64,000 nt of DNA from Candidatus Omnitrophota bacterium (GTDB lineage Bacteria > Omnitrophota > Gorgyraeia > Gygaellales > Profunditerraquicolaceae), in assembly GCA_043800555.1 (NCBI GenBank), contig JAZDMX010000003.1, positions 33,947-97,946 of the forward strand, written 5' to 3'. The notes beneath the pieces are model-generated. The model was not told the DNA's origin, ran no database searches, and saw only the letters and a program-made list of their open reading frames with translations. Shown here one piece after another: positions 6,096 through 63,338 of the stretch (positions are counted from its first letter, which is position 1; every line of letters begins with the position of its first letter). The position numbers and the translations under genes are program-made.

Positions 6096-6709
6096 GGATT
6101 ACTACCGGTAAGTTCAAGGGCAGGAATATTTGTATGCCCAAGGGCATACGTCCCACCCAAGGCAAAGTCCGAAAAGCTATTTTTGACATTCTCGGAGGCA
6201 TAGAAGGGCTTTCTTTCCTGGAGTTATTCGCCGGTTCAGGGGCAGTGGGCATAGAAGCAGCTTCGCGAGGGGCAAAACAAGTAGTTTTTGTCGAGAATAA
6301 CCCTAATGTCCTCAAAGTGTTATCTTCCAGCATATCCCGATTGCTGCCTACCGTGTATTTGGCTGCCGGCCAACTGGCTCAATACTGCGTATTGCCCCAG
6401 AGCGTTGAAAGCGCGCTAGGACGCTTCAACCGGGAGAAAAAGCGCTTCGATATTATTTTTTTGGACCCTCCTTACCATAATCCCTCGGGTTTCTACCCCG
6501 GAAAAGGGGCCTCCGGGGCCCCGGAATCAAAAAAAACCTTGCAAACTATTGAGGCTTATGATATATTAGCGCCCAATGGTTTAATAGTCGCGCAGCATTT
6601 TGAGAAGGATATCCTCCCCGTTGAGTTGGGAGTTTTAAGCCTGTTTAGGCAGTATAAATACGGCACTACAATTATATCCCTTTATAAAAAACATAGCTTG
6701 GCGGATTAA
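6092..6709 (+). CDS. rsmD: 16S rRNA (guanine966-N2)-methyltransferase RsmD
   Basis: ATGA overlap with the upstream stop. ...KGIRPTQGKVRKAIFDILGG...LELFAGSGAVGIEAASRGA...DPPY motifs. Conserved pairing with coaD downstream. Confidence 0.85.
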   Translation: MRITTGKFKGRNICMPKGIRPTQGKVRKAIFDILGGIEGLSFLELFAGSGAVGIEAASRGAKQVVFVENNPNVLKVLSSSISRLLPTVYLAAGQLAQYCVLPQSVESALGRFNREKKRFDIIFLDPPYHNPSGFYPGKGASGAPESKKTLQTIEAYDILAPNGLIVAQHFEKDILPVELGVLSLFRQYKYGTTIISLYKKHSLAD

Positions 6710-37918: not shown

Positions 37919-38737
37919 ATGAAGAAAAAAATTGGCATAGTTGGCTGCGGAGCGATAGGATCATCTTTAGCAAAGGCGATTGTAGCTAGCTTTGCTCAAG
38001 AGGCGAAGCTTTGCTCGCTATATGATTTGAATGGCGGGCTTTCCATGCGTTTATCAAGAGAGGTTTCCGGAAGCCCCGGGTTGTCGATGGAAAATCCGGG
38101 GCAGTTGATTAAGAAGTCAGACCTGGTAATTGAAGCGGCTTCGGCAAAAGTATCCTGGGGCATAGCTAAGGCGGTTTTATCTAGCGGTAAAGATGTTATG
38201 ATTATGAGCGTAGGGGGAGTATCAAACCGCCTCAAGGAGTTAACCTCTTTGGCCAGGAAGAATAACGCGCGGGTATATATTCCCAGCGGCGCTATTGCCG
38301 GCATAGATGCGCTAAAGGCCGCGGGTGTCGGGAGGATAAATAAGGTAGTCCTTACTACTACCAAAAATCCGCTTTCATTCAAAGGAGTCAAATACCTGGA
38401 AGATAAAAGAATAGATTTAGCCGGGATTAAGAAGGAAACTGTGTTATTTTCCGGGAAAGCGGCTGAGGCGGTTAAATATTTCCCCCAGAATATCAATGTT
38501 GCCGCGGTCTTAAGTTTAGCGGGGATAGGCGAAAACAAAACGCAGGTGAGAATAATTGTTTCTCCCAAGGTTGCCAAGAATACGCATGAAATCAGGATAG
38601 AGTCTCCCGCGGCCAGTATTTTTACCCGCACGGAAAATACCTTGCATCCGGATAATCCGAAGACTTCTTTTCTGGCGGTTTTATCGGCGGTAGCCATGTT
38701 GAGAAATATCCTGGAACCGGTCAGAATCGGGACCTGA
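37919..38737 (+). CDS. nadX: L-aspartate dehydrogenase (NadX/DUF108 family)
   Basis: KIGIVGCGAIGSSLAKAI Rossmann N-terminus. About 270 aa and a C-terminal domain typical of aspartate dehydrogenase. Confidence 0.7.
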   Translation: MKKKIGIVGCGAIGSSLAKAIVASFAQEAKLCSLYDLNGGLSMRLSREVSGSPGLSMENPGQLIKKSDLVIEAASAKVSWGIAKAVLSSGKDVMIMSVGGVSNRLKELTSLARKNNARVYIPSGAIAGIDALKAAGVGRINKVVLTTTKNPLSFKGVKYLEDKRIDLAGIKKETVLFSGKAAEAVKYFPQNINVAAVLSLAGIGENKTQVRIIVSPKVAKNTHEIRIESPAASIFTRTENTLHPDNPKTSFLAVLSAVAMLRNILEPVRIGT

Positions 38738-39043: not shown

Positions 39044-39109
39044 GGCAATGGGGACGTTTCTACTTTCCTAATAATGGAATTCTAGAAAAGTAGAAACGTC
39101 CCCATTGCC
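39044..39109. repeat. palindromic hairpin repeat, copy A (intergenic): GGCAATGGGGACGTTTCTACTTT-loop19-AAAGTAGAAACGTCCCCATTGCC
   Basis: Perfect inverted repeat arms 39044-39066 / 39087-39109. Same core as the copies at 46.4, 57.3, 61.0, 61.7 and 63.3 kb. Followed by a CCCCATTTTTCC mini-motif. Confidence 0.85.
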
Positions 39110-39176
39110 TCCGTCCCCATTTTTCCTGATTTTTTCAGGGATTTACAGGGGCGCCCCCTTTTGTTATAATAATCCT

Positions 39177-39938
39177 ATGTTAGAAGGTAAAAAAGTCATA
39201 GTTGTAATGCCCGCTTATAATGCCGAACAAACTATAGAGCGGACTTATCTGGATATTCCCAGAGGCTTGGTAGACCAAGTGTTAGTTGTGGATGACCATA
39301 GCTGCGATAAGACCGTGGAAATCTGCAATAAACTTGGTTTGCCTGTCTTTGTACATGAGGATAATCGTGGTTATGGGGCCAATCAAAAGACCTGCTACAA
39401 AGAAGCCCTGAAAATGGGCGCAGATGTGGTTATTATGCTCCATCCGGATTATCAATATCCCCCTAAATTAATAAACGCAATGGCCAGCCTGGTGGCTTCG
39501 GGGATGTTCGATGTTGTTTTAGGCTCAAGAATACTGGGTGGCCTGGCTTTAAAAGGCGGCATGCCGCTGTATAAATATATTTCCAACAGGATCCTCACGT
39601 TTTTTGAGAATATCGTTTCAGGCGCAAAGCTTTCCGAATACCATACAGGGTATAGGGCATTTTCCCGGCAGGCCCTGCTTAGCCTGCCTTTAATGGAAAA
39701 CTCCGATGATTTCATTTTCGATAACCAGGTGCTTGCCCAGGCAATCCGCTTTGGTTACAAAATCGGCGAGTTAACGGCGCCTTCTTGCTACGCAAAAGAT
39801 TCCTCTTCTATATCCCTTAGAAGAAGCGTAGTTTATGGTTTTGGCGTTATCCTAACAACTTTGGCGTTATTTCTGGACAGGTCAAATTTAGTTAAATCCC
39901 GTTTATTCAATCCCCATGGCCGCAAGATCGAGTTATAG
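39177..39938 (+). CDS. family 2 glycosyltransferase (polyprenyl-phosphate sugar synthase, DPM1/ArnC-like)
   Basis: VIVVMPAYNAE...VVDDHSCDKT...DADV-like GADVVIMLHPD motifs, C-terminal TM anchor. A TATAAT sits 9 nt upstream of the ATG. Confidence 0.85.
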   Translation: MLEGKKVIVVMPAYNAEQTIERTYLDIPRGLVDQVLVVDDHSCDKTVEICNKLGLPVFVHEDNRGYGANQKTCYKEALKMGADVVIMLHPDYQYPPKLINAMASLVASGMFDVVLGSRILGGLALKGGMPLYKYISNRILTFFENIVSGAKLSEYHTGYRAFSRQALLSLPLMENSDDFIFDNQVLAQAIRFGYKIGELTAPSCYAKDSSSISLRRSVVYGFGVILTTLALFLDRSNLVKSRLFNPHGRKIEL

Positions 39939-41130: not shown

Positions 41131-43923
41131 ATGCAAAGTGAATTTATCGATATTCGCGGGGCCAAGGAACATAATCTTAAAGATATAAGCCTTAAGTTGC
41201 CCCGCAATAAGCTTATAGTGGTAACCGGTTTATCCGGCTCAGGAAAATCAAGCCTTGCCTTTGATACAATTTACGCTGAGGGCCAGCGCAGGTTTGTTGA
41301 AAGCCTCTCCAGTTACGCCCGTCAATTCCTGGAACAACTTCAGAAACCGGATATAGAGTATATTTCCGGCTTATCTCCTACAATCGCCATTGAGCAGAGA
41401 TCTGCCGGCAGCAATCCCCGTTCCACTGTTGCGACGCAAACGGAGATTTACGATTATTTAAGGTTAATATTTGCGCGTATCGGAAAGATATTTTGTTATC
41501 AATGTTGCTCTCCGATAGAAAGGCAGAGCTCGCAGGAGATCATTGAAAGAATTTTGTCTCTACCCGCCGGATCCGATATTCTTGTGCTTGCCCCGCTTGT
41601 GAGAGGGAGAAAAGGCGAACATAAAGACGTGTTCAAGTTGATCCAAAAGTCGGGATTTGTCAGGGTACGCCTTGACGGTAAAATATATGAATTACCCGTA
41701 AATTCTAAGTTAGCCAAATACAAAACACATAATATAGAAGTCGTGGTTGACCGGCTCATTCTTAAAGAGGGTGTCAAAAACCGGCTGGTCGATTCGGTTG
41801 AAACAGCGCTAAAAGTCGGCAAAGGCATTGTGATAATAAACGCTAAAGAGGACATTGTTTTTAGCGAGCAATATGCCTGTTCTAAATGCGGGATAAACTA
41901 CGCGGAGGTTGAGCCGCGTATTTTTTCGTTCAATTCTCCTTACGGCGCTTGCCTGGAATGCAATGGTTTGGGAACGAAGATTAAATTTGATCCCGATCTG
42001 GTCGTGCCTGACCGGAGTAAATCCATAAATGCAGGGGCTATTGGCCCGTGGAAAAGAGGGGGCAGGGGGTATATACTTTATTATCGTTGGCTTATCCGGC
42101 AGTTGGCAAGAGAATTGCGTTTTGATTTAGATGCGCCGTTTAATAAGCTATCCAAAGAAAGCCAGCGCGCGATACTTTATGGATCGGAAGAAATCATCGG
42201 CAGCAAGCCCTATGAAGGAGTAATCCCGCATCTAGAAAGGCTCTTTCGGGAATCCGATAGCGATTATCTGAAGGAAGAGATATCCAGGTTTATGTTAAGC
42301 TCGGCTTGTCCGGCCTGTAGGGGCGCCCGCCTTAAAAAAGAGAGCTTGGCAGTCAGGATCAATAAAAAGAATATTTGGGAAATCACGCAGATGTCTATTA
42401 AAGAAGCGTATAATTTCTTTAGTAACCTGGAATTGGGCCAAAAAGATAAACTGATCGGGCATCAGGCCTTAAAAGAAATAATCCAGAAATTAAGGTTCTG
42501 TATTGACGTGGGGCTGGATTACCTTACCTTGGACAGAAAGAGCGCGACTTTATCAGGAGGAGAAGCGCAAAGGATCCGCCTGGCCACCCAGGTTGGCTCG
42601 GGTTTAGTCGGAGTTTTATATGTGTTGGATGAGCCCAGTATCGGGCTTCATCAGCGCGATAATAATAAGCTGCTGGATACCCTTAAGTCACTGAGGGATT
42701 TGGGCAATACCTTGCTTGTAGTCGAGCATGATGAGTCAACTATACTTAGCGCGGATTACATCGTGGATTTGGGCCCCGGGGCCGGCCGGGCCGGAGGGGA
42801 AGTGGTCTTCTCCGGCACAAAAGATGAGCTAATGGAAGATAAAAAATCTTTGACTGCTAAATACTTGAGGCGGGAATTAAAAATTGATTTACCCAAGCTA
42901 AGGAGAAGCTGGAAAGGCAAAAGGTTTTTGGAGGTAATAGGCGCCCGGGAGCATAACCTTAAAAATATCGATGTGAAATTTCCTTTAGGCACTTTTATCG
43001 GAGTTACCGGCGTATCGGGTTCGGGAAAGTCCACTCTTATCGACGATATATTGTTCAGGGCCCTGGCCCGGAAACTTTATAAGTCAAAAGAAAAACCCGG
43101 GTTATTCAGAAAAATCGCAGGGATCGAATATATCGATAAAGTAATCGTTGTTGATCAGTCTCCGATAGGCAGGACCCCGCGTTCAAACCCGGCTACTTAC
43201 ACAGGAGTTTTTAGCTATATCCGCGATATTTTCAGCCAGCTTCCTGAGTCCAAAGTCCGCGGCTACAGGCCCGGCAGGTTTTCTTTTAACGTTAAGGGCG
43301 GCCGCTGCGAGGCGTGCATGGGCGACGGGATAAAAAAGATTGAAATGCATTTTTTGCCCGATGTATACGTCAAATGCGATATATGCAAAGGCTTGAGGTT
43401 TAACGAAGCGACCTTGGCCGTAAAATATAAAGGCAAGTCTATCGCTGGCGTATTGGGGATGACCGTAGAGGAAGCCCTCGGCGTATTCAATAATATACCC
43501 AAAATACATAATACGCTTTCTTATTTATATGATGTTGGTTTGGGCTACATCCAGCTGGGGCAAGCCGCAACCACTTTATCCGGGGGAGAGGCGCAGAGGA
43601 TTAAGCTCTCCAGCGAGTTAAGCAAGCGCTCTACCGGAAGCACGCTCTATATCCTTGATGAACCGACTACGGGCCTGCACTTTGCCGATGTAGCCAAGCT
43701 GATCGGTGTTTTACAGAAACTGGTAGATAAAGGCAATACCGTTATTGTCATCGAGCATAATTTAGAGGTGATTAAGAGCGCGGATTACATTATTGACCTG
43801 GGCCCTGAAGGCGGAGATAAGGGGGGAGAGCTTGTTGTGCAGGGTAGCCCGGAAGAATTGGTTAAGAACAAGGAATCGCACACAGCGAAGTTTCTTAAGC
43901 AGGCGTTAGATAATAATGTTTAA
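41131..43923 (+). CDS. uvrA: excinuclease ABC subunit A
   Basis: 930 aa. Two ABC modules ([12 protein letters not shown]..., [10 protein letters not shown]...), LSGGEAQRI signatures, zinc-finger Cys clusters. Confidence 0.97.
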
Positions 43924-46366
43924 GCCTAAATCCCCCAGATCCAAATCCGAATTAATCCTTGATTACCCACTCCCTGGGTGGAATCTTAGAATACGGAGTT
44001 TATTCGTAGCCGGGATTTTGTCATTGGTTATTGTAGCGCAGTTAGCCTTTGGAAATTTTATTTTTTCTTCTTTTGCCGATGCGCCTGCCAGGGAAGAAGA
44101 GGCTTTGTTCCTGGCCCAAAAAGCGTATGAAGACGGTTATTATGATGTCAGCCTGGGGTTATTAGAGCGTTTCTTGAGGGATTATCCGGATTCTTCCAGG
44201 ACAATCGAAGCAAACCTGTTGATCGGAGAGTGTTTTTTTTACCAGAATAAGCTTAAGCCTGCCTTGGCAAAATTCGATGAACTGTTAAAATCCCCCGCGG
44301 CCAAACCTATAAAAGACGCTCTTTATTATTGGATTGCCGAGATCAATTTCAAGGTGAATAATTATGGCGCGGCGATTCCCTATTATGAAAAAGTAATTAA
44401 GGAATTTCCCGGTTCTTCTTATGTCCCGATAGCGTATTATTCTTTAGGGTGGTGTTTGTTCCAGGAGGGAAGATTCGAAGAGGCTTTGCATTATTTTACG
44501 TCTTTAAGCAGGGAATACCCCGAAAACCCCCAAAGTAAAGACGCGGCATTTAAGATTATAGAGTGTTTATATAACCTTAAGGATTATCATGGCCTAAAAG
44601 ATAAAACCGATTTGGCAATCAGGGAGTTTTCCCAGGATCCCCTTAAGGCGCCTTACCTTTATTTTTATTTGGGCGAAGCTAACTATTATTTGGGGAATTT
44701 TACCGCTTCGGTTGAGGCGTATTCCAAGGGGCTGGATGCTAACCCCGATAATAAAATACAGGCTTTGACCAGGCTTGATTTGGGTTGGGCATATCTTAAG
44801 CTGAAGCGCTATAAGGACGCCGAAGATGTTTTTGCGGGGTTAAAGCGGGAGGACTTGGAAAAACGCAACCTGGAGGTTTTATTGTTAGGCAGGGCTACCC
44901 TTTTAATGGAAACCAACCGCATAAATCAGGCAAAAAAGACATATGAGGAATTATCGAATTTGACCAGCGACCCTTTAATCGCCCTTCAGGGGCTCATGGG
45001 TAAGGCGGATGCTCTGTATGGCCTGGCGGATTACCCGGAGGCCTCAAAAGTTTTTCGCGAAGCTCTGACGAAAATCGATCCTAAGGATAAAGCCAGCGCT
45101 CAAATCGCGGATAAGCTACGCTACAGTTTGGGTAAGTCATTATTGAATGAGGGCAGGATTAAAGAGGCCATTGATGAATTCCGTAAGGTTGTTGATTCCG
45201 GGAGCGACGATATGTTCAAGATCAATGCCCTTTGCCAGATAGGGGACGCCTATCAGGATGAAGCAAATTATAAGAAAGCGCAAGAAACATACGATTTCTT
45301 CCTAAAGCGCTACCCGGATTCTTCCTGCAGCGATTATGCCCTATACCAGCTAGGTTCGGTTTATTTAAAAGACTCCCGGATCGAAGAAGCGATTTTAAGC
45401 CTCGAGGCGTTCGAAAAGAGGTTCCCTGCATCTAATTTCCTTGATGATGCCGCTTATACCCTTGGCTTAGCTTATTTTAATAAACGGGATTATACTTCGG
45501 CTGAACATGAGCTTAAGAGGTTCCAGGCTGGCCTTAGCTCAAGCGATACAAGGCCTAAAGCGCTTTACCTTTTGGGGAATTGTTTTTATAATTCGGGGGA
45601 TTATGCTTCAGCCCTACAGGTTTTTAAAGAAATTCCCCGCTCCGGGTGCGGGACGCTTGATGCCGGATTGCTCCAAAAGGCTGAATACGGGCAAGCGGAT
45701 TCTCTTTACCAGATGGGCAAGGAAGAGGAGGCTTTAGCAAGGTTTAAGGCATTGCGTTCAAAATACCCTGATTCAAGTTTTACTCCTGACATTATCTGGT
45801 GGCTGGGGATTTATTATTACCGGCATAAAGAACCTGATTTGGCAGGTCGCTATTTTTTGTCTATTATACAGGATTTTCCCAAGAGCGGCTTATTGCCCGA
45901 TGCTTATTATGCCCTGGGCCTTACTTATATAGATAAGGACAAGAATAAAGAGGCTTTGGATTATCTTGAGAAAGCCCTTAGTTTTAATAAGGCGGATGTA
46001 AATCCCAAGGCAGCCGTTGCTTTAGCCGAATTATTTTCCAAGTCAGGCGATTATGACAATGCTTTGCTTTATTACCGTAGCAGCATAAATGGAGCGCCTT
46101 TAGAAGATTTACCGGCCTTGCATTTTAAAATAGCTGAAATTGAAGAGGCTAAAGGCAATCTTGATGAAGCGGAAAAGGAATACTTCCAAGCAACTAAGTT
46201 ATCGGGCAAGGCCGATGCTTTTACCGTAAAGGCGCTTTTCAGGCTGGGCAGGGCCTATGAAGATAAAGGTAATTATCAGGAGGCTATAAAGGCTTATACC
46301 ATTATATTGAACATGAATTTGCCTGAATCTAAATATGCCGCAGAAAGGATTAATCAGCTTAAGTAA
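43916..46366 (+). CDS. large tetratricopeptide-repeat protein with N-terminal signal/TM anchor
   Basis: 816 aa. N-terminal hydrophobic helix, then about 15 or more TPR-like repeats (AxxYxxGxxyy... periodicity throughout). Confidence 0.7.
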   Translation: MFKPKSPRSKSELILDYPLPGWNLRIRSLFVAGILSLVIVAQLAFGNFIFSSFADAPAREEEALFLAQKAYEDGYYDVSLGLLERFLRDYPDSSRTIEANLLIGECFFYQNKLKPALAKFDELLKSPAAKPIKDALYYWIAEINFKVNNYGAAIPYYEKVIKEFPGSSYVPIAYYSLGWCLFQEGRFEEALHYFTSLSREYPENPQSKDAAFKIIECLYNLKDYHGLKDKTDLAIREFSQDPLKAPYLYFYLGEANYYLGNFTASVEAYSKGLDANPDNKIQALTRLDLGWAYLKLKRYKDAEDVFAGLKREDLEKRNLEVLLLGRATLLMETNRINQAKKTYEELSNLTSDPLIALQGLMGKADALYGLADYPEASKVFREALTKIDPKDKASAQIADKLRYSLGKSLLNEGRIKEAIDEFRKVVDSGSDDMFKINALCQIGDAYQDEANYKKAQETYDFFLKRYPDSSCSDYALYQLGSVYLKDSRIEEAILSLEAFEKRFPASNFLDDAAYTLGLAYFNKRDYTSAEHELKRFQAGLSSSDTRPKALYLLGNCFYNSGDYASALQVFKEIPRSGCGTLDAGLLQKAEYGQADSLYQMGKEEEALARFKALRSKYPDSSFTPDIIWWLGIYYYRHKEPDLAGRYFLSIIQDFPKSGLLPDAYYALGLTYIDKDKNKEALDYLEKALSFNKADVNPKAAVALAELFSKSGDYDNALLYYRSSINGAPLEDLPALHFKIAEIEEAKGNLDEAEKEYFQATKLSGKADAFTVKALFRLGRAYEDKGNYQEAIKAYTIILNMNLPESKYAAERINQLK

Positions 46367-46438: not shown

Positions 46439-46544
46439 GGGGATGGGAAAAATGGGGACGTTTCTACTTTTCAAGAAATAAGCTCGGAAAAGTAGAAACG
46501 TCCCCAATTTTTCCCCCCATTTTTCCCATCCCCATTTTTCCCTG
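46439..46544. repeat. palindromic hairpin repeat, copy B (intergenic), with extended/tandemly reiterated CCCCATTTTTCC outer arms
   Basis: Core GGGGACGTTTCTACTTTT 46454-46471, 16-nt loop, AAAAGTAGAAACGTCCCC 46488-46505. Left flank GGGGATGGGAAAAATGGGG is mirrored on the right by CCCCAATTTTTCC-CCCCATTTTTCC-CATCCCCATTTTTCCC. Confidence 0.85.
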
Positions 46545-57340: not shown

Positions 57341-57343
57341 AGT

Positions 57344-57413
57344 GGGAAAATGGGGACGTTTCTACTTTTCCGGCAGCTAAACTCAGGAAAAGTAGAAACG
57401 TCCCCATTTTCAT
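57344..57413. repeat. palindromic hairpin repeat, copy C (intergenic, between pilin block and tRNA-Ala)
   Basis: GAAAATGGGGACGTTTCTACTTTT 57344-57369, 18-nt loop, AAAAGTAGAAACGTCCCCATTTTC 57388-57413. Perfect 24-nt arms. Confidence 0.85.
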
Positions 57414-57429
57414 GATATAATAAAAATAC

Positions 57430-57502
57430 GGGCCTGTAGCTCAGCTGGGAGAGCGCCTCGTTCGCAACGAGGAGGTCAGCGGTTCGATCCCGCTCAGGTC
57501 CA
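57430..57502 (+). tRNA. tRNA-Ala (anticodon CGC)
   Basis: 73-nt cloverleaf. Acceptor GGGCCUG/CAGGUCC with the G3:U70 Ala identity pair, D-arm GCTCAGCTGGGAGAGC, anticodon stem CCTCG/CGAGG with loop TTCGCAA, T-arm GGTTCGATCC. No encoded CCA. Confidence 0.9.
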
Positions 57503-57609
57503 TAAATAATTTTTCCTGAATTTTCCGGGATACTCAAGCCAACCTAGTCAGGCGGCAGGCTAAGCAATCCCTAAGCCGTTTCCCCGGCAAAAATCCAAGG
57601 CAGTGCGGC

Positions 57610-58833: not shown

Positions 58834-60470
58834 CAATAAAAAGGGATTGTCGCCATAGGCTGCTCCGGAAGCCGGGTAGCTTCCTGTTGCTTCGGCATTG
58901 TTTTGCCCTGTTTCGCAGGCGCCTTGTATTTTTGGCAACTACTGGTTTCTTAGTTTCTGTTTTGAGTTTTGGCGTTTGCCATTCGTTATATGCCGGAGGC
59001 ATAAAAGAGCCTTGCGTTGCCGGGACATTTTATCCCGAAGACCCCGGAGAGCTTTCTAAGATGATTGACGCATTCTTGGAAGAAGCAAATCCTGAAACGG
59101 GGCCGGTTGGCCGGGTTTTCGCCTTAATTTCTCCTCATGCCGGTTACGGCTATTCGGGTAAAGTCGCGGGGTTCGGCTACAAGCTTATCAAGGCCAAAGA
59201 GTATAAAACGGTGGTAATTTTAGGTACGAGCCATCACTATGCCTTTAGCGGAATTTCGGTTTATCCCGGCGGCGTATTCAAAACTCCGCTTGGAGGAATT
59301 CCGGTAGATGATGAATTTACCCAAAAATTGCTCAATAAAGGCCCGGCTGTAACATTCGTCCCGGAGGCCTTTCAAGAAGAGCATAGCGTTGAAGTGCAGC
59401 TGCCGTTTTTACAAAAGACGCTGGATAATTTCAAGATTGTCCCGGTAGTCATTGGCGACGTTTCTTTATCTACCTGCCAGAAGTTTGCCGCTTTGCTTAA
59501 GGAATCAATTAATACGCGTAATGATGTTTTGTTGGTTGTTTCTACCGATATGTACCACGGATATGATTATGAGGAGGCGGATAAAACCGATAACCTTACC
59601 TTGGCCGCTATAAAGAACATGGACGCGCAAGCCCTTTATTACGGGATTCGTGATGAGAAAATGCAGCTTTGCGGAGGTTTCGGGGTTGTAACCGCCCTTA
59701 TTTTAGCCAAAAGCATGGGCTATGATAAAGCGGTATTATTAAAACATACAAACTCTGCGGAAGTTACCAATAATATGAAAAAAGGTATCTGGACCGTAGG
59801 TTATTCAAGCTGGGCTATTGGCGCTTCTATGGGATCCAGCGTCAATGGCGGGCAGAGTCGAACCAGTGGCGCTTCTTTAGGGCCCAGCGCCAATCCGGGA
59901 GGAGAAGCCATGTTTAATAAAGGTCAGAGGAAGCGGTTGCTTGAGATTGCGCGCGCTGCTATAGAGGCATATTTAAAGAATGGCAAGGTTTTAGAGATTA
60001 CCGAGACGGACCCTGCTTTGGCAAAGACTACAGGAGCTTTTGTTACCCTTAATGAACACGGGGATTTGCGCGGTTGTATAGGAAGCCTCCTGGGGACAGA
60101 ACCGTTGTATTTAACCGTGCGGGATATGGCGGTTGAGGCTGCTACGGGCGATTCCCGCTTTAACCCGGTAAAGCTGCCGGATTTAAAGAATATTGAGATT
60201 GAAGTATCCGTTTTATCTCCTATGCAGAAAATCGACGATCCTGGCCTGATTAAGCTTGGGGTCCACGGTGTTTTAGTGCGGCAAGGCTACAAGAGCGGGG
60301 TATTCCTTCCCCAAGTAGCTACGGAAACAGGATGGTCAAAAGATGATTTTATGTCGAATTTGTGCGTCCATAAAGCGGGCCTTGCCCCCGATGCCTGGAA
60401 AGATAGATCTACCGAAATTTATATTTTTACGGCGGAAGTGTTTTCCGAGAAAGAGATGAGCGGTGGTTAA
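58830..60470 (+). CDS. fused AmmeMemoRadiSam system protein B (MEMO1 family) + protein A (AMMECR1 domain), with N-terminal Arg-rich/hydrophobic extension
   Basis: ATGA overlap with the radical SAM gene. N-terminal half has MEMO1 motifs (VAGTFYPEDP...ISPHAGYGYSG...ILGTSHH...DMYHGYD). C-terminal about 190 aa is AMMECR1 (GAFVTLNEHGDLRGCIGS...GVLVRQGYKSGVFLPQVA). The first about 50 aa (RRRLVFLATTGFLVSVLSFGVCHSLYA) look like a signal peptide or membrane anchor. Confidence 0.85.
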   Translation: MTIKRDCRHRLLRKPGSFLLLRHCFALFRRRLVFLATTGFLVSVLSFGVCHSLYAGGIKEPCVAGTFYPEDPGELSKMIDAFLEEANPETGPVGRVFALISPHAGYGYSGKVAGFGYKLIKAKEYKTVVILGTSHHYAFSGISVYPGGVFKTPLGGIPVDDEFTQKLLNKGPAVTFVPEAFQEEHSVEVQLPFLQKTLDNFKIVPVVIGDVSLSTCQKFAALLKESINTRNDVLLVVSTDMYHGYDYEEADKTDNLTLAAIKNMDAQALYYGIRDEKMQLCGGFGVVTALILAKSMGYDKAVLLKHTNSAEVTNNMKKGIWTVGYSSWAIGASMGSSVNGGQSRTSGASLGPSANPGGEAMFNKGQRKRLLEIARAAIEAYLKNGKVLEITETDPALAKTTGAFVTLNEHGDLRGCIGSLLGTEPLYLTVRDMAVEAATGDSRFNPVKLPDLKNIEIEVSVLSPMQKIDDPGLIKLGVHGVLVRQGYKSGVFLPQVATETGWSKDDFMSNLCVHKAGLAPDAWKDRSTEIYIFTAEVFSEKEMSGG

Positions 60471-61179
60471 AATAGTTGCGAGCAGCTTTATTTTGGGGCT
60501 TGCGCTCGGCAGTGGGCCGTGCTTAGCTAGTTGCGGCCCGCTGTTTTTGACTTATATAGCCGGTTCCGGCAAGGGAGTTTTAAAAAGCCTGGAGTCTTAC
60601 TTTTTATTTTCAGCGTCGCGGATATTCGTTTACTTGATTTTAGGCTTATTATGCTTTTTTTTCGGCAGGTTAATCTTTGTGAGATTAGGGGATATTTTCA
60701 AGTTTATTTTGTTTGGCGCGGGCCTCTTTGTTGTTTCCCTTGGCATACTTATGGTTTTGGGTAAGGGAGTAAATTCGGCCCATTGCTCTTTTTTGCGGGA
60801 ACGTATTCTTGAAAAAGACAGTAAAGGCGTAGTCATCCTTGGGTTATTTGCTGGGCTATTGCCCTGCGCGCCTCTAATAGCTATGTTCACCTTTACGGGG
60901 TTAACCGCTAAAAGCGCCTTCGAGAATTTATTGTATTCTTTTGCATTCGGTTTAGGGACAGCTATTTCTCCGCTTATAGTTTTAGCCGGGCTGGCAGGCT
61001 TACTCCCCGCGCTCTTCAGGAAAAAGGGGGACGTTTCAAAAAAGGGGGACGTTTCTACTTTTCCCAATACTAGCTATAGAAAAGTAGAAACGTCCCCCTT
61101 TTTCTTGAGGCTGTTCCATATTATTTGCGGTTTGATTATGGTATTCTTAGGGATTCAGCTAATTCGGAGAATATTTTAA
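60463..61179 (+). CDS. integral membrane protein with paired TM cysteine motifs (GSGPCLASCGP ... LLPCAPL; CcdA/DsbD-like thiol-disulfide or metal transporter family?) carrying an in-frame repeat insertion
   Basis: 6-7 predicted TM helices. Residues about 186-214 (RKKGDVSKKGDVSTFPNTSYRKVETSPFF) are encoded by repeat copy D. The hydrophobic reading frame resumes after it (LRLFHIICGLIMVFLGIQLI). Confidence 0.5.
   Translation: MVKIVASSFILGLALGSGPCLASCGPLFLTYIAGSGKGVLKSLESYFLFSASRIFVYLILGLLCFFFGRLIFVRLGDIFKFILFGAGLFVVSLGILMVLGKGVNSAHCSFLRERILEKDSKGVVILGLFAGLLPCAPLIAMFTFTGLTAKSAFENLLYSFAFGLGTAISPLIVLAGLAGLLPALFRKKGDVSKKGDVSTFPNTSYRKVETSPFFLRLFHIICGLIMVFLGIQLIRRIF
61021..61103. repeat. palindromic hairpin repeat, copy D (inside CDS, in-frame), with an extra 5' partial arm duplication
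   Basis: AAAAAGGGGGACGTTTC (partial) then AAAAAAGGGGGACGTTTCTACTTTT, 17-nt loop, AAAAGTAGAAACGTCCCCCTTTTTC. Belongs to the five-G / AAAAAG-flank subtype. Confidence 0.85.
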
Positions 61180-62001
61180 ATGAATAAATTTTTCTGTAAG
61201 GATTCGGATATGCAGGAGGACAAAATCAACATTTCAAATAAGGAGGATGTCCACCATATAAAGAATGTCCTTAGGCTAAAGCAGGGCGGAAAGGTTGAAG
61301 TCTCTGATGAATCGGGCAATGTTTATGCCTGCGAAATCTTCCGGATAGACGATAACGTCCATTTGGTTGTTAAGAATAAAATTTGCTCTACCGGTATAGA
61401 CCGGGGGATAGAATTAACTGTGGCAGTCGCTATCCCCAAGAAGGCCAAGATAGACGATATCATAGATAAGCTGGTCCAATTGGGGGTGCGCAGGGTTATC
61501 CCTTTGAAAACGGAACGCGTGATAGTGAAACTGGATAAGCAAAAGGAAGCCGACCGTTTTCTGCGCTGGAAGAAGATTGCGCTTTGCGCGGCTAAGCAGT
61601 GCAAAAGGAGCGATTTAGCTGTTATTGAGCCGGTTAGGAGCTTTAAGGACGTTGTCGCGGATTCAAGCAGGTTTGATTTAAAGCTTATTCCGTATTTGGG
61701 AGGGGAACGGAGAACTCTTAGGGATGTTTTAGCAAAGGGGGACGTTTCTACTTTTCTTGAGCCTGGTGCCAGAAAAGTAGAAACGACCCCCTTTGCTTTG
61801 AAAAGTAGAAACGTCCCCCTTTTTTCTAAAGTAATGGTTTTAATCGGGCCGGAAGGCGATTTTTCCGAAGAAGAGGTTCAGTTGGCTTTATCCGCGGGGT
61901 TTATCCCGGTTACGCTGGGAAGTTTAGTTTTACGCGTGGATACCGCTGCTATTGCCGTAGCCGGTTTCATCAGGCTGTTTTTAGGTCAGGAGCGGTTTTA
62001 A
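61180..62001 (+). CDS. rsmE: 16S rRNA (uracil1498-N3)-methyltransferase RsmE, carrying an about 30-aa in-frame repeat insertion
   Basis: PUA-like N-terminus and SPOUT C-terminal domain (VLIGPEGDFSEEEV...LGSLVLRVDTAAIAVAG). The segment KGDVSTFLEPGARKVETTPFALKSRNVPLFS is encoded by repeat copy E, between conserved blocks. Confidence 0.8.
   Translation: MNKFFCKDSDMQEDKINISNKEDVHHIKNVLRLKQGGKVEVSDESGNVYACEIFRIDDNVHLVVKNKICSTGIDRGIELTVAVAIPKKAKIDDIIDKLVQLGVRRVIPLKTERVIVKLDKQKEADRFLRWKKIALCAAKQCKRSDLAVIEPVRSFKDVVADSSRFDLKLIPYLGGERRTLRDVLAKGDVSTFLEPGARKVETTPFALKSRNVPLFSKVMVLIGPEGDFSEEEVQLALSAGFIPVTLGSLVLRVDTAAIAVAGFIRLFLGQERF
61731..61826. repeat. palindromic hairpin repeat, copy E (inside rsmE, in-frame): one left arm plus two right arms
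   Basis: GCAAAGGGGGACGTTTCTACTTTT, loop, AAAAGTAGAAACGACCCCCTTTGC (one mismatch, flank-complementary), then a second right arm AAAAGTAGAAACGTCCCCCTTTTTT. Confidence 0.85.
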
Positions 62002-62056: not shown

Positions 62057-63301
62057 ATGAAGATAAAATTTTATACCCTTGGCTGCAAAGTAAACCAATA
62101 TGATACCCAGAGTATCCGGGAGCGTTTTCTGGCGCATGGGTTCAAGGAGGCGCGCGGGCCAGGCAAAAGCGATTGTTATCTTATAAATACTTGCACCGTT
62201 ACGGCTATGGCCGACCAGAAATCCCGCAGGCTGATCCGGCATTGTATCAGCGAAAACCCGCAGGCCAAAGTAATAGTAACCGGTTGCATGGTTAAGAATG
62301 ATTCCGGAGAGTTAGCCGGAATTCGCGGCGTGAGCCTGATTATCAGTAAAAGTTTTTTTAGCGAAGGGATAAGCGATTTTTCTTCGCATACCCGGGCGTT
62401 TTTAAAGATTCAGGATGGTTGCGATAATTTTTGCTCCTATTGCAAGGTGCCTTTGGCGCGCGGCAGGTCAAGAAGCAGGCCCTTAACGGATGTAATTAAA
62501 GAAGCCCGGGCCCTAGCCGAAAAAGGCTTCAAGGAAATAGTCTTAACCGGTATATGCCTGGGTTCTTACGGCAAGGATCTCGGAAAAGGCATAGGGCTGG
62601 CAATGGTTATCGAAGAGATGGAGAAGATAGAAGGGTTATCGCGTATCCGTTTGAGTTCTATCGAGGCCGGCGATATTACCGAGCCATTGATCGATAAGAT
62701 GTCTAAATCCAAGAAGCTTTGCCGGCATTTGCATATTCCTCTCCAAAGCGGGGATGATGATATCTTAAAGAAGATGCGGCGTAAGTATTCGCGTAAATTT
62801 TATCTTGATCTTATTAAGAGGATAAAAGCCAAGATCCCGCAAATAGCCATTACTACTGATTGCCTTGTCGGCTTCCCGGGGGAGAAAGAAAGAAATTTCA
62901 GGAATACCCTGGATTTAATCAATAGTATCCTGCCTTTAAGGGCGCACATTTTTCCTTATTCTCCCAGAAAGGGAACAAGCGCTTATCTAAAGGCGGTTCA
63001 TCTTGGTTTTTCATCGCCCGAGCTTGTTAGAAGGCGTGTCGCTGTCCTTAAATCCGCGGCCAGCCTGTGTTCCGATAAGTATAAAAAGCGCTTCTTAGGC
63101 CGCACAATGCTTGTTCTTTTTGAAGGTAAATCCAGGGCAATGAGGGGGTGCTGGGAGGGTTATACTGATAATTATATTAAGGTTATTTTCAGGTCCCGGC
63201 GTAATTTAAAGAACAGGCTGGTATATGTCAAGCTTAAGGGTATTTTTGGCGATGCCGTATTGGCTTCCCGGAAAAAGGGGGACGTTTCTACTTTTTTCTA
63301 G
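62057..63301 (+). CDS. mtaB: tRNA (t6A37) methylthiotransferase MtaB (MiaB/RimO radical-SAM methylthiotransferase family)
   Basis: MTTase N-domain YTLGCKVNQYDT...INTCTVT, radical SAM CxxxCxxC in DGCDNFCSYCKVP, C-terminal TRAM domain. The last 9 codons (KKGDVSTFF) and the TAG stop come from repeat copy F. Confidence 0.85.
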   Translation: MKIKFYTLGCKVNQYDTQSIRERFLAHGFKEARGPGKSDCYLINTCTVTAMADQKSRRLIRHCISENPQAKVIVTGCMVKNDSGELAGIRGVSLIISKSFFSEGISDFSSHTRAFLKIQDGCDNFCSYCKVPLARGRSRSRPLTDVIKEARALAEKGFKEIVLTGICLGSYGKDLGKGIGLAMVIEEMEKIEGLSRIRLSSIEAGDITEPLIDKMSKSKKLCRHLHIPLQSGDDDILKKMRRKYSRKFYLDLIKRIKAKIPQIAITTDCLVGFPGEKERNFRNTLDLINSILPLRAHIFPYSPRKGTSAYLKAVHLGFSSPELVRRRVAVLKSAASLCSDKYKKRFLGRTMLVLFEGKSRAMRGCWEGYTDNYIKVIFRSRRNLKNRLVYVKLKGIFGDAVLASRKKGDVSTFF

Positions 63302-63338
63302 GCTTAGCGCCGGAAAAGTAGAAACGTCCCCCTTTTTC
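63271..63338. repeat. palindromic hairpin repeat, copy F (forms the 3' end and stop codon of mtaB)
   Basis: GAAAAAGGGGGACGTTTCTACTTTT 63271-63295, 18-nt loop containing TAG, AAAAGTAGAAACGTCCCCCTTTTTC 63314-63338. Confidence 0.85.

Follow-up and report, generated by a model that had tools for sequence, protein, structure and literature searches.

The window (the whole 64,000-nucleotide stretch analysed, from a contig of a Candidatus Omnitrophota bacterium) carries an rsmE gene whose reading frame runs through a copy of a palindromic repeat that is dispersed elsewhere in the same stretch. The open reading frame (ORF) and the parts of the repeat copy within it are as follows, the parts of the repeat being given without a strand.

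61180..62001, + strand: rsmE ORF, 273 aa, RsmE-family 16S rRNA m3U1498 methyltransferase, open throughout the repeat
61731..61826: whole repeat-derived segment, approximately residues 186-215 (KGDVSTFLEPGARKVETTPFALKSRNVPLFS), defined from sequence, alignment and spacer length
61734..61756: left arm AAAGGGGGACGTTTCTACTTTTC, translated K-G-D-V-S-T-F, from arm matching
61757..61771: loop TTGAGCCTGGTGCCA, 15 nt, related by eye to the loops of other copies in either orientation
61772..61794: right arm 1 GAAAAGTAGAAACGaCCCCCTTT, one mismatch, translated R-K-V-E-T-T-P-F, from arm matching
61800..61824: right arm 2 GAAAAGTAGAAACGTCCCCCTTTTT, a perfect copy, translated K-S-R-N-V-P-L-F in the other stop-free phase, from arm matching and RNA fold

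An earlier note on this DNA had described the segment as one left arm and two right arms, the first of these with a point change, within an intact rsmE frame, and the sequence proved to be exactly so: translation across the repeat reads RTLRDVLAKGDVSTFLEPGARKVETTPFALKSRNVPLFSKVMVLIGPEGDFS without interruption. The mismatch in right arm 1 is a T>A change (AAACGACCCC, in the context AAACGACCCCC), and a 5-nt spacer, GCTTT, separates this arm from right arm 2. When the flanking AGCAAA and TTTGCT are included, the left arm and right arm 1 make up a 27-nt arm pair that is 96% complementary. As RNA, the repeat segment folds at -46.3 kcal/mol (z = -7.1), with a U-run after the hairpin; the left arm pairs with right arm 2 in the minimum-free-energy fold of a 111-nt segment and with right arm 1 in the fold of a 96-nt segment. 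There is no stop codon in any frame of the left arm, and the right arm has TAG in one of its three frames. Since the right arms are offset by 28 nt, both are open in just one of the three phases, and this is the phase seen in rsmE; a single open phase is what a selection filter acting on insertions in a useful gene would leave.

The RsmE protein and the position of the insert

The N-terminal PUA-like domain and the C-terminal SPOUT methyltransferase domain were both found in the window RsmE, which matched the Pfam domains PUA_4 (2e-10) and Methyltrans_RNA (1.1e-40) and scored 150.7 bits against TIGR00046 (cutoff 41). The identification of the flanking sequence as RsmE in the earlier note was therefore correct, but the motif quoted there as LIGPEGGFS reads LIGPEGDFS; this motif and LRVDTAAIA, the knot-loop motifs of LIGPEGG and RxxTA type, are invariant in the RsmE alignment. 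The protein is 100% identical to an NCBI protein encoded on a 304-kb contig of a Candidatus Omnitrophota metagenome-assembled genome (MAG), and its exact sequence is recorded from one assembly only. Its closest orthologues, of 243-257 aa, show 69-70% BLAST identity over 98% of the query, with identity reaching 77% in the alignment. Foldseek gave a probability of 1.0 for the window RsmE model against the crystal structures 5o95, 1vhk, 4e8b and others.

An open frame through the repeat would be fortuitous if this rsmE were a decaying pseudogene. RsmE is dispensable in E. coli, and the equivalog-level NCBIfam models score the window protein under their cutoffs. The latter result is, however, accounted for by the splitting of the alignment at the insert, and the protein keeps all 62 invariant columns of a 20-sequence alignment, shows no frameshift or stop, has its 58 C-terminal residues downstream of the insert conserved in frame, and is modelled by AlphaFold with a confident core. 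It is thus very unlikely that the gene is a pseudogene.

To measure the insert, the spacer between the conserved anchors FDLKLIP and LIGPEG was determined in the 116 orthologues in which it was measurable. The spacer was 49 aa in the window RsmE compared with 23 aa in 70 of the 116, so that the excess is 26 aa relative to the 23-aa spacer and 29 aa relative to the closest orthologues of 243-244 aa, in line with the approximately 30 residues that had been claimed. The claim that the insert falls between conserved blocks holds for these anchors but not for the PUA and SPOUT domains, as the insert falls within the SPOUT domain (residues 78-263 in Pfam). With several profiles, and with every PDB homologue, the alignment is broken at residues ~173-186 / 215-217.

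The codons affected encode a short link from the helix that ends in ...DVLAK to the beta-strand running into the LIGPEGDFS knot loop, where S-adenosylmethionine (SAM) is bound. The AlphaFold model of the window RsmE (mean predicted local distance difference test score, pLDDT, 81) has a helix at 180-186, then a stretch with pLDDT 45-53, then a strand at 217-222, whereas the model of the insert-free orthologue P0004 (pLDDT 87) has a helix at 179-184, a 5-residue turn and a strand at 190-195, with pLDDT ~90; the remaining secondary-structure elements occur in identical order in the two models. The 26-29 added residues are thus predicted to be disordered and to protrude from the surface at the strand's N-terminal end, at a distance from the cofactor loop, and from the usual alpha/beta topology they would be placed on the face opposite the SAM site. 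This suggests that RsmE with the insert probably still works, and the models agree with the earlier proposal of a tolerated surface loop, in that the 5-residue connection of P0004 is replaced by a low-confidence excursion while the other elements are kept. If so, this RsmE would be one more documented case of a SPOUT methyltransferase that accepts some 30 foreign residues in the link ahead of the strand that binds its cofactor.

Occupied and empty rsmE sites in related genomes

Eighteen of the 116 Omnitrophota orthologues had at least 8 extra residues at the same RsmE site. In locus L001 the site reads AAAAAAAGGGGACGGTTCTATTTTTT…AAAAATAGAACCGTCCCC and in L205 GGGGACAGCCACCTTTTT/AAAAAGGTCGCTGTCCCC. 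L002, L200 and L201 have a common 45-nt version, GGGGACGGTTCTAT-TGCTAATGGCTCAAAGA-ATAGAACCGTCCCC, in the same codon phase and with a homologous loop, and L199, from the sister lineage of the window, carries this 45-nt element too, but its arms are altered and its fold has decayed. Compared with shuffled sequences, six of seven occupied sites folded at z = -6.0 to -8.5, the seventh being L199 (z = -0.7), whereas two empty sites gave z = +0.3 and +0.9. A metagenome scan, in which the matches listed were mostly insert-free orthologues at ~45% identity, served to provide empty-site controls. In a neighbour-joining tree made with the insert masked, occupied and empty orthologues were interleaved.

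A near-identical pair of occupied and empty alleles is formed by L002 and L198, which are 96.7% identical over 20 kb. The only indels of at least 3 nt between the two are the region of a Y1 transposase gene, an adjacent 84-bp segment by a tRNA, and the rsmE patch; the presence of the Y1 gene coincides with that of the rsmE hairpin.

The earlier note had held that a homologous segment in orthologues from unrelated lineages would speak against an insertion. Many orthologues of the same phylum (57-77% identity) do carry hairpin-derived segments at this position, so the event in rsmE was not a one-off and the site has been occupied recurrently. The insertion reading nevertheless stands, because most orthologues are without the segment, loci that are 96.7% identical differ in it, and the empty sites are unstructured.

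The same loop also holds other kinds of added sequence: orthologue P0092 has an unrelated repeat-like peptide there (…HPRESGDLKKMDSRFHGNDV…, …SRFHGNDV…), and P0046, P0069 and P0088 have low-complexity LPLPLP runs. From these it appears that the recurrence is probably due in part to the permissiveness of this loop within the protein.

Chimeric reads arise easily at palindromes and the exact protein comes from a single assembly, so all of the segment, or just its second right arm, might have been created during assembly. The insert is, however, in frame and stop-free, and two independent assemblies of a relative, L002 (ENA) and L003 (Logan), have an identical hairpin at the same rsmE site. Tandem extra arms occur also at position 61026 of the window and upstream in L029. 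An assembly artefact is accordingly very unlikely.

The main alternative is that the hairpin is an old, selected functional element, either an RNA attenuator, terminator or processing/stability site tuning rsmE-mtaB or a DNA recognition site, which has been kept by compensatory change. The agreement of L002, L199, L200 and L201 in codon position, phase and homologous loop (the 45-nt version) is in keeping with this, as is the great stability of the hairpin with the U-run that follows it. Furthermore, the four arm sequences found at the site (GGGGACGTTTCTAC, GGGGACGGTTCTAT, GGGGATAACCCTGT and GGGGACAGCCACCT) are self-complementary, with changes on both sides, except in L199. However, the arms track the dispersed family of each genome, which is expected for re-insertion or conversion, and the same repeat is present in unrelated genes. 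The bare 23-aa spacer of 70 of the 116 orthologues, the interleaving of occupied and empty alleles on the tree, the difference in hairpin presence between near-identical strains and the plain decay in the sister lineage (L199) also argue against a maintained function, which we consider unlikely.

The existence of empty, relic and occupied alleles in relatives, together with the pair formed by L002 (45-nt version) and L198 (empty), means that natural controls are available and that insertion tolerance is directly testable. As a natural experiment the case is less unusual than the earlier note had supposed, as precedents are known.

The repeat family, its core and the Y1 transposase genes

The 15-mer GGGGGACGTTTCTAC from the arm has 14 matches in the window at no more than two mismatches, compared with 0.06 expected, and none of 100 shuffles reached 14. 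They belong to six hairpin copies, at 39049, 46453, 57351, 61026, 61737 and 63277 (25 kb of the window), of which that at 61737 is the rsmE copy described above. The other five, again without strand, are:

39049..39104: intergenic copy between 37919..38737 and 39105..39938, from arm matching
46453..46506: intergenic copy 3' of the TPR gene 43916..46366, from arm matching
57351..57406: intergenic copy, TGGGGACG variant, at the position of the Y1 transposase gene in relatives, with a tRNA next at 57430-57502
61026..61098: copy in frame in the DsbD_2 membrane protein gene 60463..61179, made up of a full hairpin and an additional half left arm
63277..63332: copy overlapping the end of mtaB (62057..63301), from sequence and orthologue comparison

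Three of the six copies overlap ORFs. The copy in the DsbD_2 gene adds 24 aa (KKGDVSKKGDVSTFPNTSYRKVETSPFF) ahead of the last transmembrane helix and is absent from the four orthologues compared, including that of the sister lineage L199. The mtaB copy replaces the ancestral stop and adds RKKGDVSTFF, the six orthologues compared, again including L199, ending 10 residues earlier. On these comparisons, the repeat has modified three consecutive genes of one cluster in the window lineage. Two sub-variants can be distinguished: the three intergenic copies start with TGGGGACG and end with CGTCCCCA, and the three coding-associated copies start with GGGGGACG in an A-run/T-run context. No direct target-site duplication was found at any copy; the outer flanks are inverted complements (an A-run/T-run or a lineage-specific palindrome). 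We considered the idea that the arms had inserted around local sequence, giving unrelated loops, but dropped it, as the loops look related by eye in either orientation. Rfam searches at permissive E-values of window 38-64 kb and of six loci gave only sub-threshold miRNA-hairpin matches on the repeats. A simple terminator scanner flagged none of them, but it accepts only loops of up to 8 nt, so this result has no bearing on terminator function.

Species-representative genomes were then scanned for exact matches to GGGGACGKTTCTAY-N8-38-RTAGAAMCGTCCCC, which gave at least 114 stretches (loci L004-L117). Among the matches listed, about half were from Omnitrophota, and the other hosts included cultured Butyrivibrio isolates, many Clostridia MAGs, an Aminicenantes chromosome, Planctomycetales, Bacteroidales, Deltaproteobacteria and Coriobacteriia. 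The repeat is present on multiple contigs per genome in MAGs and isolates other than the window genome. A single match in an Aenigmatarchaeota assembly (L047, on a 3.3-kb contig) was rejected as evidence for an archaeal host: its loop resembles that of the Omnitrophota locus L010, and the two come from the same sampling campaign (Sandtown C vs D1), so L047 is a probable mis-binned contig.

The 14-nt core GGGGACGKTTCTAY is nearly invariant, while the sequences that flank it are lineage-specific. Within an arm, the outer and inner flanks can pair with each other across the core, with a mean helix of 4.4 bp compared with 2.4 ± 0.17 for cross-paired controls, none of 200 of which reached 4.4. A single arm can thus fold by itself into a small stem with the 14-mer as its loop, and the two arms of a doublet can form one long hairpin. 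Examples of this X-core-X' architecture, of which we found no description in the literature, occur in loci L006-L102 (e.g. L033 2262-2319, L072 154-209 and L088 5987-6042). A full-text search of the literature for the core returned only primers, and no description of Omnitrophota repeats was found, including in the HuH phylogenomics paper.

Across genomes, 14 of 137 copies were inside long ORFs and ~90% outside. Among the sequences interrupted in frame are an MtaB-like radical-SAM domain, a PriA helicase, a protein of radical-SAM/DUF3641 type and two very long ORFs, and the copies concerned are:

L026 7800-7835: in-frame copy
L111 589-641: in-frame copy
L004 4347-4395: in-frame copy
L031 and L101: in-frame copies

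Several copies lie next to genes for a Y1 transposase. In L071 the Y1 gene has one left core on one side and one right core on the other, in L029 there are hairpins on both sides of it, and in L053 and L103 a hairpin is within ~100 bp. The 196-aa Y1_Tnp protein has as its best NCBIfam match the REP-associated tyrosine transposase model (74 bits vs a cutoff of 80) and belongs to a family that is widespread in Omnitrophota and of constant length (195-196 aa). In relatives of the window genome the gene occupies a conserved site a few kb upstream of rsmE, with pseudopilin genes on one side and a tRNA on the other:

L001 6501-7091: Y1 gene
L002 6077-6667: Y1 gene
L202 3001-3591: Y1 gene

The matching site in the window, 57341-57609, has no Y1 gene, only the hairpin copy at 57351-57406 and then the tRNA. 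A motif conserved between distant genomes, …GTTAGATTT…ACGTCTATTA…AGGAGG, was seen ahead of the Y1 start codons in L001 (~6430-6500), L002, L053, L071, L103 and L202-L204; this may be a promoter, an operator or a transposase-binding site.

A broader proposal can be made from this distribution, namely that a single undescribed Y1-transposase (RAYT/TIRYT-like) system, marked by the 14-nt core with complementary flanks, has spread through, or persisted in, Omnitrophota, Clostridia (including cultured Butyrivibrio), Aminicenantes, Planctomycetota, Bacteroidales and Deltaproteobacteria, with an insertion preference or selected retention for the one rsmE loop. We regard this as speculative and rather doubtful. 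If true, the RsmE loop would serve throughout the phylum as a recurrent landing pad for in-frame insertions, and the hairpin might be an RNA element within the operon.

Origin of the insert and known repeat systems

The most probable origin of the rsmE segment is that a palindromic repeat associated with a Y1 transposase was inserted, or was regenerated, in a permissive turn of five residues in RsmE and persisted as it was in frame and free of stops. The segment would belong to a family of dispersed palindromes of REP/REPIN or 'TIR-repeat' type (TIR, terminal inverted repeat), with an extra tandem right arm in this copy, the repeat unit consisting of two inverted arms of ~23 nt around a short loop that appears to diverge fast. 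A RAYT/TIRYT-like HUH Y1 tyrosine transposase would mobilise the family through single-stranded hairpin DNA, as suggested by the fact that such genes are bracketed by the same 14-nt core in other genomes, and in a coding gene presumably only stop-free insertions of a multiple of three would survive. The window copy may be a recent re-insertion, or may have arisen by conversion of an older copy by the genome's own repeat family, because its perfect arms match the other copies of this genome while the sister lineage holds a decayed relic.

Several results weigh against this origin. No clean insertion junction or target-site duplication was found in the comparison of L002 and L198; since the whole patch differs (63 nt vs 27 nt), recombination or conversion would be as plausible there as simple transposition. 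The double right arm at rsmE is known from a single assembly, and no Y1 transposase gene was found by tblastn in the 64-kb window. In addition, the Y1 genes of L001, L002, L202, L203 and L204 have their own flanking inverted repeat, which shares only a GGGGACG head with the dispersed core. Membership of the REP/TIR-repeat and Y1 transposase class is thus only partly demonstrated for the source genome.

Taken together, the cluster of three genes in one operon, the recurrent use of the rsmE loop and the occurrence of the core by Y1 genes in several phyla suggest an undescribed, widespread REP/TIR-type family that shapes the proteins of little-studied candidate phyla. In practice, peptides such as KGDVSTF, GDGSIF and KIEPSP in MAG proteomes are repeat-derived and should not be taken as motifs.

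Two known kinds of element resemble the repeat in some respects. Rickettsia palindromic elements (RPEs), reportedly described by Ogata and colleagues in 2000, are said to be palindromic selfish DNA found in frame in housekeeping genes. Their host proteins are apparently still functional, with inserts thought to sit in surface regions; RPE-1 is ~100-150 bp and confined to Rickettsia, and we know of no dedicated RPE transposase. The likeness to the rsmE segment, an in-frame palindromic insert in a housekeeping gene, is one of description, which makes RPEs a functional analogue only, and the element studied here differs in being 45-90 nt, in its link to a Y1 transposase family and in its non-Rickettsia host. 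Miniature inverted-repeat transposable elements (MITEs, for example Correia/NEMIS, RUP and Nezha) are likewise short, non-autonomous hairpin elements with inverted repeats that can be co-transcribed and occasionally lie in ORFs. However, their TIRs are recognised by DDE transposases and they have direct target-site duplications, whereas the copies studied here all lack direct duplications and have flanks that are inverted complements.

The closest resemblance is to REP and TIR-repeats with their RAYT and TIRYT genes (PMC3733652; Nunvar 2010; REPINs of Bertels & Rainey). These too are short dispersed palindromes, often arranged as inverted dimers or clusters. They lie mostly just downstream of genes, with some in frame in known genes where they add 20-30 aa, and Y1 (HUH) transposase genes are bracketed by the repeat, an arrangement seen here in other genomes (L029, L053, L071 and L103) but not in the window. 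In the survey of Di Nocera, De Gregorio & Rocco (2013, PMC3733652), the REPs inside known genes were mostly dimers or clusters encoding 20-30 aa, Rickettsia RPEs were counted among the same kind of element, and different REPs were found at about the same site in recB of two Xanthomonas species. The same work described RAYT-like TIRYT genes flanked by inverted repeats headed GGGGWSAS, with dispersed copies that form dimers and clusters (PMC3733652). This head fits GGGGACAG (L205 and the extra arm of L029), but the window GGGGACGT and the common GGGGACGG differ from it at position 7 or positions 7-8; as for the GTAG tag of REPs, the arms here hold GTAG/ATAG and CGTC internally. The family also departs from these systems in its conserved block, a 14-nt core with lineage-specific complementary flanks instead of a GC-rich stem with a GTAG tag at its foot, in the large share of copies that overlap ORFs in the window, in the occurrence of the same 14-mer in several phyla, and in that no description of the core sequence or of an Omnitrophota host was found in the literature. 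Intragenic palindromes that add 20-30 residues are therefore already documented, and the rsmE insert is a further case, to which are added here the repeated use of a single loop within a candidate phylum, the in-frame cluster in three genes and the 14-nt core shared across phyla.

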